A stretch of 63,826 nt of DNA, filler included, from Globobulimina sp. (taxonomy: Eukaryota), in the NCBI GenBank assembly GCA_003354225.1. It is 44 parts of 44 records of this genome, joined end to end, with 100 filler letters (N's around TTAATTAATTAA, not from the genome) between each part and the next. Parts side by side here need not be neighbours in the genome. Positions count along the whole stretch, not along the records: positions 50,859 to 52,210 come from PIVH01018121.1; 43 more parts are not named here. One strand, 5' to 3'. A program made the translations under genes and the position numbers. The notes under the pieces were generated by a model. That model saw only the letters and a list, made by a program, of their open reading frames with translations, made no database searches and had not been told where the DNA came from. This document shows, one piece after another, positions 1,880-52,310 of this stretch. Every line of letters starts with the position of its first letter. The stretch's first letter is position 1.

Positions 1880-2808
1880 TTATTTATTAACACCGACATC
1901 CTCAATAACAGTATGTGTCTCACCCTGCTGTCCCTCACTCATTGGCGCGTCAATAATTTCTCCCATTTCAATCTCAACATTCTCCGAAAACTGATCATTT
2001 TCATTCCTTTTAAATTTAACATAGCGTGTTTTATCATTGTAATGAGCAACAACTTTTTGTTTCCCTTTATCTTCCAATTCAGTCGATATCTCATCAAATA
2101 TTTCAAATAAACATTTCTCCCCTTTTCCATCATTCATATCAAGCAATGTTTTATCAACAAATGAGGCCAACATATAACTACCAAATTCAGTGTCTAATTT
2201 TGATTGAAATCCAGCATTCGCGGCATGTATCTCTACAAGTTTATGGTCGGGGTTTTTCTCCCCGAGATACCAAAGGCCAATCTCCTCTTTTTCTTCCTTT
2301 TCCTCTTTTTCCTCTTTTTCCTCTTTTCCTTCGAGTTCTTGAGAAAGCACTGTCTTCGCTGGTCCTTTACCGCCATCATTGTCAGAGTCACTTTCATCGC
2401 CACCACGTACTGTACCACGTTCATCGCCGCCATCACAACAATCAAACAAAAACAAACGAGGTATTTGTCTTAAATGCGCATAATCCGCACTGAATATTCT
2501 ATGAATTGCAGTTTTTTCAATCAATTTATAATCAGATGTACAAATATTTTGATTAAGGCCATGACAGGAAACAGCAACAATCAATGCATCATATTTATCC
2601 TTTGCAATTGTTTCGGTTGATATTACATTTTCATTTAAATCGTTTGCTTTCGTTGTTAATAATGTAATGATTTCATCCCGTTTCCATTCTAACTTTGCAT
2701 GCTTTGGATTATCTAATTTCGGATATATATCATAATTTAAATGATCAGCAAATAATTTATAAAGATTTGGAATATCCTGATCCAAATTTAAATCGTTTAA
2801 AAATCCAA
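1880..2808 (-). CDS. Caspase-fold cysteine protease (peptidase C14), 5' truncated
   Basis: ALIVAVSCHG (catalytic His), IPRLFLFDCCDG (catalytic Cys), acidic linker with EEK repeats, then a p10-like segment (HAANAGFQSKLDTEFGSYMLASF). Confidence 0.8.
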
Positions 2809-2908
2809 NNNNNNNNNNNNNNNNNNNNNNNNNNNNNNNNNNNNNNNNNNNNTTAATTAATTAANNNNNNNNNNNNNNNNNNNNNNNNNNNNNNNNNNNN
2901 NNNNNNNN

Positions 2909-4262
2909 AATGCATTTTGTTATTCCTTTGAGACATTCAATAAATTCTTTAAGATATTTAAAGATGGAAACCATTCAAACCACGACCAATTAAACAAAAA
3001 TGATATTTTTTATGGTGAAATCTGGATTTTACACGTTCGGTCTCATTTAATTGATTATCATACAAATTATCAACACAAATCACCACAAAACCTCAGGAAA
3101 AATAAGCTGCAGATAATCTCCTCCATTTACAAAAAAATGTATAAAGCGCACATAGCAACCAATAACGGGCAGTTTTTTATTGATTGGGCCAAATATTACA
3201 TCGATTTACGAAAAAAAAAGGAAAAAGCAAAAAAAATATTAACCATTGCCGCTACAAAACAACTGCAAATTGCACAAACTAATTTTACTGAATATTATTT
3301 ACAAATGCTCGGAACCAACGCGCCAAACCATGCAAATAATTATTTATCACATTCCGATTTGGGCTCCTCCTCAGACTCACAATTTGCAGACCATACAGAG
3401 AGCGAAAACGATGACGACGCCACGCTAAAACATCGAAATAATATGGACATTGATGAAAATGATGCAAACAATAATTATTTGTCCCGCTCGCGATCAACGC
3501 GGTCATTTATGTTCGGCAAACCACCGCAACGAGTCATCTCATCCTCATTCAATACAAATTGTACCACTTCCAACACAAACTCGCAAACCGATTCTGATCA
3601 TTTCGATGAGGAACCGCCGCAACAATATGACTATGACTCTGCCTCTGACTCACAACAAAACGATCAACAACAACCAGAAGATGAGGATGGTGATGAAAGT
3701 GGTGAATTATTTGTGGAGCATAAGTTTGGCCACAAATTGCAACAAATCACGGAAAACGGGATATTTTCTCCATTGCCGCCAAAAAATGATTTAAAAAGAA
3801 CTCCGTTTGTAACCCTAAAAAAAACAAAATTGGATCAAAATATAAATACACTCAACTCCAAGAATCTGAGTGTCAGCGTAGCAAAGAAAAGATTAGTCCC
3901 ATTTACACCCAATACACTAATCCGAAATATGTGTAACAATCAACATAAATCTTTTTCCTTTTCTCAATCCAAAAGGCAGCCAATTCAACGCAATCAAATG
4001 CATGCCAATGATCTGTGGAGTTGTCCGCGTTGTGCGTCTCCACAAAAACAATCAAACGGTGCATGTGAAATGTGTGGATTTGTAAATCAGAATCAAAAAT
4101 ACGCAGAGAAAGAGAACCATACTCCCCACAAATACTCGCGCCCCAAATCACAATCAACACCGCTTCCAATGCCAATGCCAATGACCATTGCAACCCCGCT
4201 CTCAAACCGACAATATACAAAATATGTAAATAATGTGTCTCCTTTTAGTGACAAAAAAAGTG
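2909..4262 (+). CDS. Bub1/Mad3-like (or Mps1-like) checkpoint protein fragment: TPR region, RanBP2-type zinc finger, KEN box
   Basis: Upstream exon KNDIFYGEIWILH plus IYKKMYKAHIATNNGQFFIDWAKYY resembles the Mad3/Bub1 TPR; WSCPRC-x10-CEMCG zinc finger; KENHTP. Confidence 0.55.
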
Positions 4263-4362
4263 NNNNNNNNNNNNNNNNNNNNNNNNNNNNNNNNNNNNNN
4301 NNNNNNTTAATTAATTAANNNNNNNNNNNNNNNNNNNNNNNNNNNNNNNNNNNNNNNNNNNN

Positions 4363-4947
4363 TATTTGGCAAATAAATATAATGGGAAATTTTTGACAAA
4401 AGACGAAAACGGGACAATCCATCCAAATATAGATGAAAATAAGTTAAAATGCAAAGTAATTCAATGGCTATTCTTCCAGAATGCAGGTGCTTATTTAGCT
4501 GTTTTTTTATCAATGATACATTTGTCTAACTGAACAGGTATTGGACCAATGCAAGGACAAAGCAATGTTTTTTACCGCTATGCTCCAAAGAAAATACCAT
4601 TTGCAATTAGCAGATATCAAAAGGAGACACGGAGATTGTATCAAGTGATGGAGAGAGAATTGCAACTAACAAATAACAAATATATTACAAACAATTATTT
4701 CCCAACGATTGCTGATTTTGCGTTGTATCCATGGATAAAAATCCATTTTTGGGCTGGTGTGAAAATTGATGGTTTGGACTATTTAAAGAAATGGATGAAG
4801 GCAATGGCGCAATTATCATATGTCAGACAAGGATTAAATATTCCACCAAAAGCAAAAAACTTACAAAGTGAAGCAAGAGTCACGCAGCAAGGTGGCAGAG
4901 CAATTATCATTGGAGATACCGCCGCTACATTGAAGTCAAAATTGTAA
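4363..4947 (+). CDS. Glutathione S-transferase, Ure2/YfcG (nu)-like, 5' truncated, intron 4487-4537
   Basis: Spliced [45 protein letters not shown]...TIADFALYPW. Confidence 0.92.
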
Positions 4948-5016
4948 TTATAACAGACAGCTAATAATTATTTGTAATCATATTCGTTGCTCAAAAACCT
5001 ACTTTGATTTTGATTC

Positions 5017-5716
5017 ATGTCGAATATGGCCGACAGTATTACAATATCATCACCATCGCATCACTCATATCATCATCATAAACAAATAAAACATGAGTAT
5101 GATTTAAACAGTCACTCAAATAATAATGATTTTATTCATTTCAATCCTCAATCACATCAATCAAAAAATACAAACACGAAAATAATTAAAACTGAGCCTG
5201 CCTTTCGTTGCCAAAAATGTCGACGAACATTTACTACAAATCATGGATTGGCAAGTCATCAACGGTATGTTTGCTATGTGTAATGTCTTTAAGTTTTTGT
5301 TTTGTATTTGTTATTTTTGTAAACAGTGTCCACAAAAACAAAATCGCGCCTGGACCGCAAAGAGAATCCCTTGATTTTAATGCAATGCTTAAAATGTATG
5401 AGTTTTATGTTTATTTGCAGTCAAAAAGAAAATCATTTAAGTCCTAAAACACAAAAAACAATTTAATTCACAGAAATTTCCATCAAAACCATCATTTGAA
5501 TTTTAATTCAAATCAAATTCGAAATTTAAGCTCTCAAATAAAGGAAAATTACCATTGCGATAAATGTAACGCAGCATTTTTTTATCGGAATGATTTGATA
5601 AAACACCAAAAATATTCGCAATGCTCCGAACGTCCATATTTATGTCCATTTTGTGAGAAACCATTTAAAGCACAATTGTCGGTAAAAAAAGATTGTTTAA
5701 ACCTTCATTCAGGAAT
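5017..5716 (+). CDS. C2H2 zinc-finger protein, multi-exon, 3' truncated
   Basis: FRCQKCRRTFTTNHGLASHQR, YHCDKCNAAFFYRNDLIKHQK, SERPYLCPFCEKPF. Confidence 0.8.
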
Positions 5717-26163: not shown

Positions 26164-27482
26164 TTGTATTCAAAATATTCTTTGATATAATTTATCATAA
26201 ATTTATAGGCTTTGTTCTGAAATCTGCGAATTGTGGCACAGCTTAACACGCAGCCAAAGGTAAAGGTGTCCAATTTGATTAATCTATTTTTTATCAATTT
26301 GATTAGGTCCAAAAAAACATTGTGATCCTGCTGCGATATATAATGAAAATGGTATAAAATCTGTGACTGTTCGCGCCATAAACTGATATCTTTCTTATTA
26401 TTATGGTCCAAATCATTAAAAAAAGCAAATATATATTTCAAAATGAGTGCCATTTTACCTTTCTGTCCCAACATTAATATTTGAAGGATCAGCGGTGGTA
26501 ACAATGAATAATTCAATTTATTGATCACTTTCATGATTTTGGCTAAACAGCCAATCAATTCCTCGCCGTTTAAATTCAATTCTTTTAAGGATGAGATTAT
26601 ATTAATTACCATATGATGGCAGCATATATCATCATTGCTATTCGTATCTTGTATTTTCCACTTTTTTTCACATATCAATGCGATGATAAATCGTTCAAAT
26701 TCTGCACCGTTTTGGCTGTCTGTGTCTGCGTCGGATATTAAATATAATTCAATTTTTTGAGAGTATTTCAATGTAATTAGTAATTCTGGTAAGAGCTTGA
26801 ATGATTTCCCTGTGTTGTTCTCGTTGTTGACGGAGGACACAATGTGATGTGCATTATGTGCGTGATATGCTAATGGCATTACTGCAATCTGTGCATATTT
26901 GTTATTACTTTGTTGTCGGACTGAGACTCAACACAAATTCTTAACTTCTTCCAAGTAAATCGAGATTGCTTTTTCTGTCCATTTTTCATGCTCTTTTCGG
27001 GTGTGTGGGAAATTAATTATTTTACAAAATTCAATAAAAAATGCGACGGATTTATTCATAAATGCTCTTTCTCCTTTTTTGCTGTTGTGTTTATTATCAT
27101 TCTCATCATCATCGTCGGCATCATCATGGGAAGGATGGATATCATGTTTTCGATTATTTTGCAATGATAAATAGTGATAACTGAAATTTTGATATCCTCG
27201 GAACAATCCTCGAATTAAATTATGAAATGCGATTTCATCATTTTTGTTATATGATTCATGCAATGCGGTTGTAATTTGTTGCGGATTCATTTCGTTAATA
27301 TTATTAATAAATACTTCTATTTCTGCGGTCAAATTGTTTTTATTTTTATCAGTGGCTTGGGTCAATGCAAAGAGACTGGTGGATTTATATGGCATTGGTT
27401 CCACTGATTCATCCTTATTCGTGGTATGGTTCTTGTTCTTATCTTTACGCCTTGACTGAGTTTGTGTATTTGTGCGGGGCAT
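26164..27482 (-). CDS. FANCI: FANCI (Fanconi anemia group I) N-terminal region, intron 26889-26945
   Basis: KSFKLLPELL, GAEFERFIIALICEKKW, LPPLILQILMLGQKG..ILKYIFAFF, FTFGCVLSCATIRRFQ recall FANCI solenoid 1/HD1 motifs. Confidence 0.75.
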
Positions 27483-28282
27483 TATCTGTCAAGGTTTTGT
27501 AAACAAAACTGTAATANNNNNNNNNNNNNNNNNNNNNNNNNNNNNNNNNNNNNNNNNNNNTTAATTAATTAANNNNNNNNNNNNNNNNNNNNNNNNNNNN
27601 NNNNNNNNNNNNNNNNTTTACATCAAAATAATTGTAGAATTCGCTATGATTACAGAAATATTGGGCTGATAACTAGTTTCCAGTGTTTAACATCCAGAAA
27701 CGGGTGTATTACTGTAAACGTAATGATTTTTAAGGTTCTATGTAACCCAACCATTTAGTAAAGGGTGTTTGTGCTACCAATATTTCACGCGTCAACCGCT
27801 GACCGCGTACAACTAGTTATGAAATGGACAAACTAGGTAGTACTGCTTGGAAACATTACTCGGCCGCTTGAACCGTTTTGTTTATGTTTCATAATTGGCG
27901 AGAATATATAAAAGTGATTGTTTGCAACATCTCTTAGATCGATTTGGACAGCCGCTTCTGGAAATGAAAACCCAGAGTTGTTGTTCATATCGATTTTGCT
28001 AAATTCATCGACATGATGGAAATAATAATCTTTTGCAAAAATTTCATATATTAAAATAAAATCTATTTTATCAAGCCGCGACGTGTTATAATGATAAAGG
28101 CGTTAGTATAAGCCTGGCAGATGAATGCTAGATCGATAATAGCTGATACATATAAATAAAACCATTTCAACATTTATTAAGTCAAATGCACACGATTAAC
28201 CAGTATTACCCAAATATGGAGCACGAATCATACCGGCCGATTATATCAAATCGTATATACTAGTAACGAAGTATCGAACATG

Positions 28283-50858: not shown

Positions 50859-52019
50859 TTTTTCTTTGCAAAGTCGGGCTCATATGGTTTCAACATGATC
50901 ATCTCATTGAATTCCGAGTAAAACTGGACATAGTTGAGTTCCCACTGAGCAGCGGGAAAAATCATTGGATTGTTTTCCCAGTTGTTGTTTCCATAAACAC
51001 TTTCAAATTCGCAAATACCAAAGTAAGCTTTCTTGGGCATTGGTCCCCAACCAAAGACGGGTGATCGCCATCCTGATACACCTTTAGGGATTTGAAATAC
51101 CAGTGTACTTGTTTTTGAGTAAGGAAATCGTGCCACATGAGTTTTCATGTAGCTTGACAATAGATCCAGCGCTGCATCGTGGTACACAACTCGTCGCACA
51201 TTCAGCTTGCGGCTGTGAATAATAATTTTGTATGAATCTTCCACACCTTGAGAACGTAGGAGGCAATATGAGTCAGTACTGCGTCTCAAGCTTATCTGCA
51301 CAGACATATTTGGCAGCAAAAGTCGTTTTGTGGTGAATGCATTATGATTTAGCCGGCCATACAGTTTAGCACGTTTGCTTTTTTCAATAAATCGGTGGCG
51401 AATAGAAGGATGGGCTGCTGGATACTGGTAGTCTTTGACCCAAATGTTTGTATGTTTAAGCACGCTGTCTTGAAATAGTTCATCATAATCCAGAAGGTTG
51501 TGAAGCAAAGCAGTCTGCGGATGAAAAGAACCAAGATATCCAACTTCTACACCATTGATCGACAAAGTAACTTTTGTAAACAGTGCATTGAAGAAGTCAT
51601 TGCATGGTTGAATCTTCTCACTGTCATCCTCTGTAAGACTTTCACCATTTCCTTTGACAACTTCAAAGTCAACATCAACATAACAGTTGCTTATATCAGT
51701 TCCCATTTCGTGTGAAAATGGGACTGTGAAATTAAGCAGCTCGGCATCTGAAAATATAGTCACTTAAAACAGTAGATCGAAACTTATCTTAGTGGATTGA
51801 TACTTATCTATGTCACATACCTGGAGTTAGATTGCGGTACTCTTGGAAAAAACTTCTTTTGATAGCATCTTGTTGGTTTTCAATGGACAAAATATCGAAC
51901 AAGTCACTTTTGCGACTATTGCTTTCGAAAACTGTGTTGGATAATGGCTGAAACCAACCCTTCTCCTGACGTTTTGATCTTTTGATATGCTTTGGTTTAG
52001 TTCTGTCTGACTTTGGCAT
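50859..52019 (-). CDS. Polinton/Maverick (adintovirus) double-jelly-roll major capsid protein, 2 exons (52019-51821, 51762-50859), 3' truncated
   Basis: NDFFNALFTKVTLSING, HPQTALLHNLLDY, LYGRLNHNAFTTKRLLLPNMSVQISLRRS, PKKAYFG, NPMIF, PYEPDF; exon 1 supplies the conserved SDLFD...AIKRSFFQEY N-terminus. Confidence 0.85.
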
Positions 52020-52310
52020 TTTGGCAGAGAGAATAAGTGAAAAACCGCAGCTCACCAGATGACAATATAGTAAAAATGATTAAAATAGAATAACTTGCAT
52101 TAATATAGCAAATGTTTACATGTAAGATATGTTCACATTTGGACCCGCCTGACAGAATGAGCCGAAAGAGTAAAAGGAGTAAAAAGAGCAAACTGGGGAG
52201 CAAAAATGAGNNNNNNNNNNNNNNNNNNNNNNNNNNNNNNNNNNNNNNNNNNNNTTAATTAATTAANNNNNNNNNNNNNNNNNNNNNNNNNNNNNNNNNN
52301 NNNNNNNNNN

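Follow-up and report, generated by a model that had tools for sequence, protein, structure and literature searches.

Organization of the capsid gene

The window analysed here is a stretch of 63,826 bases made up of 44 size-sorted contigs, each 1352-1354 nt long, joined by N44-TTAATTAATTAA-N44 linkers. One of these contigs, PIVH01018121.1 (50859..52210, 1352 nt, with linkers on both sides), carries on its minus strand most of a gene for a major capsid protein, divided into two predicted exons by a short interval with GT-AG ends. Exon 1 (51821..52019, minus strand) begins with an ATG at 52019 and comprises 199 nt, corresponding to 66 codons and the base G of a split codon. Its product has a basic N-terminus, with nine lysines or arginines among the first 20 residues, and this basic stretch is followed by the N-terminal motif of the family, DLFDIL...IKRSFFQEY. 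Exon 2 (50859..51747, minus strand) is an open frame encoding most of a double-jelly-roll capsid protein. As N linkers separate the contigs, position 50859 is a contig end and not a gene end; exon 2 runs off it, so the stop codon and the C-terminus are missing, the latter amounting to about 90 residues as estimated against homologs of 427-444 aa.

The putative intron opens with GTATGT at 51820 and is followed by two candidate acceptors, 15 nt apart. The proximal AG ends at 51763 and delimits a 58-nt interval, removal of which joins the exons through a G+TG valine codon. The distal AG (TTTTCAG) ends at 51748 and delimits a 73-nt interval (51748..51820, minus strand; gtatgt...tatattttcag; 70% A+T; phase 1), removal of which yields an aspartate codon from G|AT. 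Use of the proximal acceptor adds five residues, and after either one the frame is open for 300 codons, to the contig end at 50859. Splicing normally takes the first AG that follows a branch point, and this would favour the acceptor at 51763. However, the boundaries found in homologs, together with the spacing between EY (QY in L003) and the downstream GTD/GVD, place the intron at 51820-51748: the distal acceptor gives a spacing of 20 residues and the proximal one 25, compared with 21 in the related loci L001, L002 and L003 and in the continuous homolog P0009. The proximal AG at 51763 is possibly an alternative acceptor.

An earlier note on this DNA had described two minus-strand ORFs joined in frame by removal of the 58-nt GTATGT...AG interval, with G+TG giving valine, and these coordinates were reproduced. 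Of the intron that it placed at 51763-51820, the donor is retained, whereas the acceptor moves to 51748 (73 nt) on the evidence of the homologs; its second acceptor, TTTTCAG, does keep the frame but lies 15 nt further on and not 12. Similarly, within the span 50859..52019 assigned to the gene, the start codon at 52019 stands and the other limit proves to be the contig end. The note had also assigned to exon 1 a capsid N-terminal motif with a basic extension. The count of basic residues given above bears out the extension, and the motif is corroborated by a single comparison, in which 13 of 23 residues are identical between the C-terminal part of exon 1 and the N-terminus of P0009 (E 8e-6); against the more distant P0012 no significant alignment of exon 1 was obtained (E 1.6). 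A second copy of the intron was not found in the 63.8-kb window, which gave 10-nt chance matches only, and the interval 51748-51820 contains no terminal inverted repeat. A search of the capsid contig against Rfam returned no family for the intron and one sub-threshold match, to SNORD38, outside it.

Setting within the window

Given that linkers flank 50859..52210, neighbouring sequence in the window is without physical linkage to the capsid contig. The GC content of this contig, 39.1%, is the third highest among the 44 (range 26.5-40.7%). Throughout the window (1-63826), ORFs that appear to enter N stretches are cut by contig ends. By Pfam, the proteins of the other contigs are ordinary eukaryotic ones (histone, caspase-domain, ankyrin, protein kinase, FANCI, pectinacetylesterase, GDT1 and MATH), and no Polinton hallmark domains were detected on the other 43 contigs in a scan of 48 ORFs of at least 120 aa, drawn from 41 of the 44 contigs, the remaining three having no ORF of this length. 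For the pectinacetylesterase-like ORF, all clusters returned by the Atlas were dominated by plants. A 450-codon ORF with an RNase H domain (E 5e-7) fills one contig entirely (46504-47853, plus strand) and is possibly a fragment of a retroelement polyprotein.

The standard genetic code fits the window, as TAA (16 cases), TGA (10) and TAG (three) all end long ORFs. A non-standard code is not indicated, and reading any of the stops as sense lengthens ORFs only modestly. A search for GT-AG joins between adjacent ORFs gave 14 candidates, three of which are on the capsid contig while the rest are unverifiable, and no host intron consensus could be derived from the other contigs. Of two ORF breaks that were inspected, one consists of an in-frame TAG preceded by a pyrimidine tract and the other of an in-frame TGA without GT-AG. 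At 26928-26930 (minus strand), an in-frame TGA with no GT-AG ends around it separates ORF 26931-27488 from ORF 26166-26927, the downstream one, which carries a FANCI solenoid domain; this TGA may mark a gene boundary, be a site of read-through or result from an error.

Capsid family and fold

The PIVH01018121.1 protein (P0002) has 15 database homologs of 268-444 aa, with identities of 44-61% and E values from 6.5e-107 to 3.5e-51, all of them encoded on contigs of no more than 3204 nt. No homologs were detected at E<=1e-3 among database proteins of 526-2000 aa. An exhaustive HMMER search extended the family to 1113 clusters at E<=1e-3, with a typical size of about 435 aa. The PIVH01018121.1 protein itself matches no Pfam family (E<=1), no PHROG and no PDB sequence; in a 90-member sample of the family, three members match PF21738 DJR-like_dom (best E 8.2e-5) and two match PF16903 Capsid_N. 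The nearest Atlas clusters carry PF21738, and one of them is named 'Major capsid protein'.

Structure comparison was carried out with an AlphaFold2 model of P0009 (pLDDT 90.8, pTM 0.89, from a 90-sequence alignment), which is 48% identical to the PIVH01018121.1 protein over 291 aa. A Foldseek search of the PDB gave 262 matches at E<=1e-3, led by the double-jelly-roll capsid proteins from SGIV, EhV-201, Sputnik and PBCV-1 and including that from mavirus as well as vaccinia D13 (E 2e-15 to 2e-12). The corresponding search of BFVD gave 140 matches at E<=1e-3 (best E 4e-20), among them a Cotesia bracovirus protein, adomavirus LO7, an Adintovirus sp. protein, a MELD virus protein and many giant-virus capsid proteins. 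As judged from the modelled fold of this homolog, the gene family is one of double-jelly-roll major capsid proteins (Bamfordvirae).

Gene context is available from a remoter branch of the capsid family. The 12.3-kb IMG/VR viral contig L008 has its capsid gene beside genes for an Adeno_IVa2/Pox_A32 ATPase, an rve+Chromo integrase and an adenain-like Peptidase_C5 protease, and in L009, from the same branch, a capsid gene of the family occurs with an rve+Chromo integrase and a Pox_A32 ATPase. The PIVH01018121.1 protein aligns to the L008 capsid protein with E 5e-23 (22% identity, 311 alignment columns). L008 also has a 1157-aa ORF (2085-5558, plus strand) at the place expected for a Polinton polymerase. 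This ORF has no Pfam polymerase match and no PDB sequence match; its assignment as a polymerase was not confirmed, the sole match being a weak one to Endonuclease_7. Given the homology to a capsid protein encoded beside hallmark genes and the double-jelly-roll fold, the assignment of the gene as a homolog of Polinton/Maverick/adintovirus-type major capsid proteins, as the earlier note had it, is sound. Members of the close clade were not found in IMG/VR (two tblastn-positive stretches and no loci with alignment A3, and nothing in searches with P0019 and P0020), and 37 pattern matches in prokaryote genome contigs included no relative.

An intron shared by related loci

Seven related metagenome loci (L001-L007) were compared by tblastn, with the continuous 430-aa P0009 as the probe. 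L004 and L005 are continuous across the site of the PIVH01018121.1 intron (intron 1). In PIVH01018121.1, L001 and L002, the body of the protein is encoded in a different frame from its N-terminal 20-35 residues, while in L003 the two lie in one frame with an in-frame stop between them. The same exon arrangement in different frames at three independent loci is more than would be expected by chance. Intron 1 is shared by three of the seven loci at the identical codon, in phase 1, with GT-AG ends and lengths of 49-68 nt: 49 nt in L001 (gtaagt...tatatttgcag), 68 nt in L002 (gtgagt...aatatttgcag) and 54 nt in L003 (gtatgtgacata...ttatttgtag, with gtatgt at its 5' end), in each case splitting an aspartate codon. 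In all four copies, that of PIVH01018121.1 included, G ends exon 1 and AT or AC resumes the frame (G|AY, aspartate), and the 3' end is pyrimidine-rich and terminates in YAG; the intervals are 69-85% A+T. The distal acceptor of PIVH01018121.1 (tatattttcag|AT) is an exact match to the split pattern of L001-L003. The first 12 bases of the intron are the same in PIVH01018121.1 and L003 despite saturated synonymous sites (dS 1.42).

The remaining two loci, L006 and L007, lack intron 1 and have a different one. This intron 2 (about 403-452 in L006 and about 543-596 in L007) is in phase 0, has GT-AG ends (gtaag...yag), follows LFS[K/M], and is found in a sister clade. In L007, the intron-1 site is occupied by an in-frame TGA. 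The distribution of intron 1, present at the same codon in three of the seven loci, with two continuous loci and two with another intron, points to an inherited intron, and its position at the same codon in copies with saturated synonymous sites indicates that it is old. On these comparisons of sequence, which support it strongly, intron 1 appears to be a real, inherited intron of the spliceosomal type in a clade of capsid genes. The earlier note had named an intron common to close homologs as counting against its reading of a spliced lineage or a domesticated gene. The intron is indeed shared, by three of the seven loci, and this removes only the uniqueness of the single copy; the reading of a lineage of spliced capsid genes is strengthened by it.

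The same introns affect the way in which these proteins are represented in databases. Among the 15 closest database proteins, four are full length and 11 start inside the gene, and for four of these 11 the DNA has an intron immediately upstream of the called start. The clade thus shows the cost of assuming that such genes have no introns.

Phylogeny, selection and copies in the sample

In the phylogenetic tree, 12 rows, among them the PIVH01018121.1 gene, L001-L003 and an intronless clade, P0008-10, form a group with support of 91/94 and no settled branching order. Since the intron-bearing copies are not separated in order from the intronless P0008-10, the tree fits a gain of intron 1 as well as a loss. 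The loci with intron 2 form a separate, well-supported clade. The comparison of dN and dS among homologs that the earlier note had proposed gave values consistent with a maintained protein: all frames are intact among the capsid copies compared, with dN of 0.28-0.49 and saturated dS, and the close pair L004/L005 has dN 0.061 and dS 0.288.

Several capsid genes appear to be present in the same sample. Among public sequencing runs, the stretch was found in one of unspecified kind (X1) and in none listed as RNA, and runs X2 and X3 gave no match. In X1, a 1012-nt contig with a depth of about 5 covers 50954-51965; the intron interval is present in it, and it contains no exon joint. Two further X1 contigs, with depths of 13 and 21.5, match only the conserved capsid cores (51485-51523 and 51645-51686) and then diverge. 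When translated by hand, the loose ends of these two higher-depth contigs read as P0009-like and L001-like capsid peptides, which implies at least three capsid lineages in the sample. In addition, five diverged copies come from records with one common accession prefix.

Sequences flanking the capsid genes

Upstream of the start codon, two short motifs recur among the relatives. A TGCGGTT motif lies at 52043..52049 (minus strand), 30 nt upstream of the ATG of PIVH01018121.1, and TGYGGTT occurs 19-31 nt upstream of the capsid ATG in six of the eight sequences (L001 13-19, L002 363-369, L004 791-797, L006 17-23 and L007 138-144 in the relatives), with variants in L003 and L005. Fifteen occurrences of the motif were counted over the two strands of the whole 63.8-kb window. 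The motif is a candidate for a conserved 5' leader or promoter element in this capsid clade. Further upstream, at 52100..52107 (minus strand) and 81-88 nt from the ATG, lies the TATA-like sequence TATATTAA, and TATAWA is found 78-86 nt upstream of the ATG in L002, L004 and L005; TATATTAA is a candidate TATA box of the Pol II type. Together, the two elements would fit transcription by Pol II, which would accompany splicing.

Apart from the capsid gene, little of a Polinton is to be seen near these loci. The 1.35-kb capsid contig contains no polymerase, integrase, ATPase or protease gene and no terminal repeats, and no Polinton genes were detected in the flanks of L001-L005, of which 0.03-1.4 kb is available. 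The stretches of 0.6-1.4 kb that follow the capsid gene in L001-L003 show no conserved coding sequence, gave no Pfam match and are mutually unrelated; downstream flanks without coding sequence are unlike a compact Polinton. Neither exact terminal inverted or direct repeats nor circular ends were detected in the eight sequences (PIVH01018121.1 and L001-L007). Repeats resembling TTGTAYAGAA directly follow the capsid stop codon in L001 (from 1344), L003 (from 1544), L005 (from 2339) and L006 (from 1442), and may represent a 3'-end or regulatory signal. A near-identical stretch of 32 nt is also common to L001 and L003 after the capsid stop.

A conserved ORF of 125 aa, predicted to be all-beta, adjoins the capsid gene in three loci, on the same strand in L002 (1-273, plus strand) and divergently in L004 (257-634, minus strand) and L005 (474-860, minus strand). 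It has 10 database relatives with identities of 57-100%. Its structural model is of low confidence (pLDDT 60) and gave no Foldseek match at E<=1e-3; the best Z obtained with VIA was 7.7, and the mavirus penton gave Z 6.1, within the background range. No Pfam family was found below E 0.19, and a profile comparison with the 129-aa ORF that lies upstream of the capsid gene in L008 gave no match. On PIVH01018121.1, the 191 nt available upstream lack this ORF.

Origin and status of the gene

The reading that we regard as probable is that the contig represents the 5' three quarters of a spliced major capsid gene of the Polinton/Maverick/adintovirus kind, which forms part of a mobile element. Its observed basis consists of the homology, the fold as modelled on a homolog, and the position and phase of the intron. 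On this reading, the gene would be transcribed in the nucleus, with the TATA-like box and the TGYGGTT leader motif ahead of the ATG acting as promoter and leader elements, and the host spliceosome would remove a short AT-rich GT-AG intron after codon 66. The distal acceptor at 51748 would be the one most likely used, giving aspartate from G|AT, and the proximal AG at 51763 might serve as an alternative that adds five residues. The intron would have been inherited from an ancestor common to at least three environmental copies, and the same sample would contain several diverged copies of the capsid gene family. The basic N-terminus may direct nuclear import of the capsid protein, and the PIVH01018121.1 copy would be part of a mobile element and not a lone gene. 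For this copy taken by itself, the claim is a comparative one, drawn from the related sequences.

A broader proposal, put forward tentatively and as a single joint reading, is that a whole clade of Polinton/adintovirus-like elements has come to depend on the nuclear gene-expression machinery of the host. Its capsid genes would carry old, position-conserved introns at two or more sites in sister groups, behind a promoter and leader composed of the TATA box and TGYGGTT, and would be spliced like cellular genes while several lineages still multiply in one genome. Were such a lineage of spliced polintoviruses to exist, virus-mining pipelines that are blind to introns would systematically miss or truncate these elements. 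Conserved introns in the capsid gene would mean long nuclear residence, with transcription by Pol II and splicing. They would also bear on whether such sequences have the status of virus, transposon or host gene, with the presence and position of an intron as a simple marker for the transition.

The gene could also be a Polinton-derived capsid gene domesticated by the host, perhaps together with its 125-aa neighbour, in which introns were gained and a host function is under selection. This was the other possibility raised in the earlier note, and we consider it unlikely. The conservation of intron positions despite saturated synonymous sites is what would be seen in orthologous host genes, and the Pol II-like promoter layout, the intact frames with purifying selection, and the lack of any other Polinton gene in the available flanks of L001-L005 all fit a domesticated gene. 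However, at least three diverged capsid lineages in run X1 and five diverged copies under one accession prefix argue against it, as does the side-by-side occurrence of intron-bearing and intronless forms. Further points against it are that the 125-aa neighbour has one orientation in L002 and another in L004/L005, and that no host gene was observed flanking any of the copies.

It is improbable that the sequence derives instead from an exogenous, adintovirus-like nuclear dsDNA virus that was present in the sample without being integrated, and whose late capsid mRNA is spliced by the host, a process known from other nuclear DNA viruses. Although the comparatively high GC content of the contig (39.1%, third of 44), the adomavirus and adintovirus proteins among the nearest structural matches, and the restriction of homologs to short contigs (<=3204 nt) are in keeping with such a virus, the X1 contig is of low depth (about 5), and the run yielded no long viral contig. 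Nor did IMG/VR scans yield a member of the close clade, and the sequences downstream in L001-L003, being non-coding and mutually unrelated, do not resemble a compact viral genome. Finally, a decaying relic, in which the capsid gene would be dead, the 58- or 73-nt interval an insertion or frameshift and its GT...AG a coincidence, is very improbable: L007 does have an in-frame TGA at the intron-1 site, and vertebrate Maverick copies are reported to be mostly degraded (PMC8097293), but four independent loci have canonical boundaries with the same phase and split aspartate, lengths of 49-73 nt and intact flanking frames, and exon 2 is open for 300 codons without a stop.

Comparison with known systems

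The spliced capsid gene that we consider probable resembles the capsid genes of Polinton/Maverick/adintovirus elements such as L008 and L009 in its double jelly roll, in a protein size of about 435 aa, and in the N-terminal DLF...EY motif. In those elements hallmark genes lie beside the capsid gene, whereas the available flanks of the close clade show none. A further difference concerns the introns. The statement of the earlier note that Polinton capsid genes are typically single-exon agrees with four sources. In intact copies of vertebrate Mavericks the ORFs are intronless, in agreement with Kapitonov and Jurka 2006 (PMC8097293); endogenous viruses of protists are said to 'not contain introns', and surveys of endogenous Polinton-like viruses use prokaryotic gene finders in view of this stated absence (PMC10120064); EMALE genes are without introns (PMC8547959); and the core genes of nematode Mavericks, including that for the capsid, are intronless while their cargo genes have introns (preprint 10.1101/2022.07.12.499685). 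Core genes of this kind are thus described as intronless, whereas the capsid coding region has a spliceosomal-type intron at one position in PIVH01018121.1 and L001-L003 and at another in L006 and L007. In the main texts of the papers accessible to the search, no report was found of a Polinton-type capsid gene that has a conserved spliceosomal intron.

The nearest published exception found is that of the Maverick-Polinton-like proviruses of dinoflagellates, which contain introners (PMC11957031 / PMC12166617). The introners are likewise spliceosomal introns inside integrated Polinton-like elements that keep their capsid genes, but they are multi-copy, transposon-derived and mostly acquired after integration. 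The intron described here has no second copy in the 63.8-kb window and occupies the same codon in diverged copies.

Mimivirus and Faustovirus capsid genes have larger introns, which are not known to be of the typical short GT-AG host type. Both viruses belong to the Nucleocytoviricota, and the genome sizes are very different. In Mimivirus (PMC2688009) and Faustovirus E12 (PMC6247863), too, the coding region of a double-jelly-roll capsid protein is split and needs splicing.

Adenoviruses and adomaviruses are nuclear dsDNA viruses with double-jelly-roll hexons, and their late genes are spliced by the host spliceosome. In adenoviruses, splicing attaches leaders to a hexon frame that is itself uninterrupted, whereas the intron considered here falls within the capsid coding sequence. 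One of the best structural matches of the P0009 model is adomavirus LO7.
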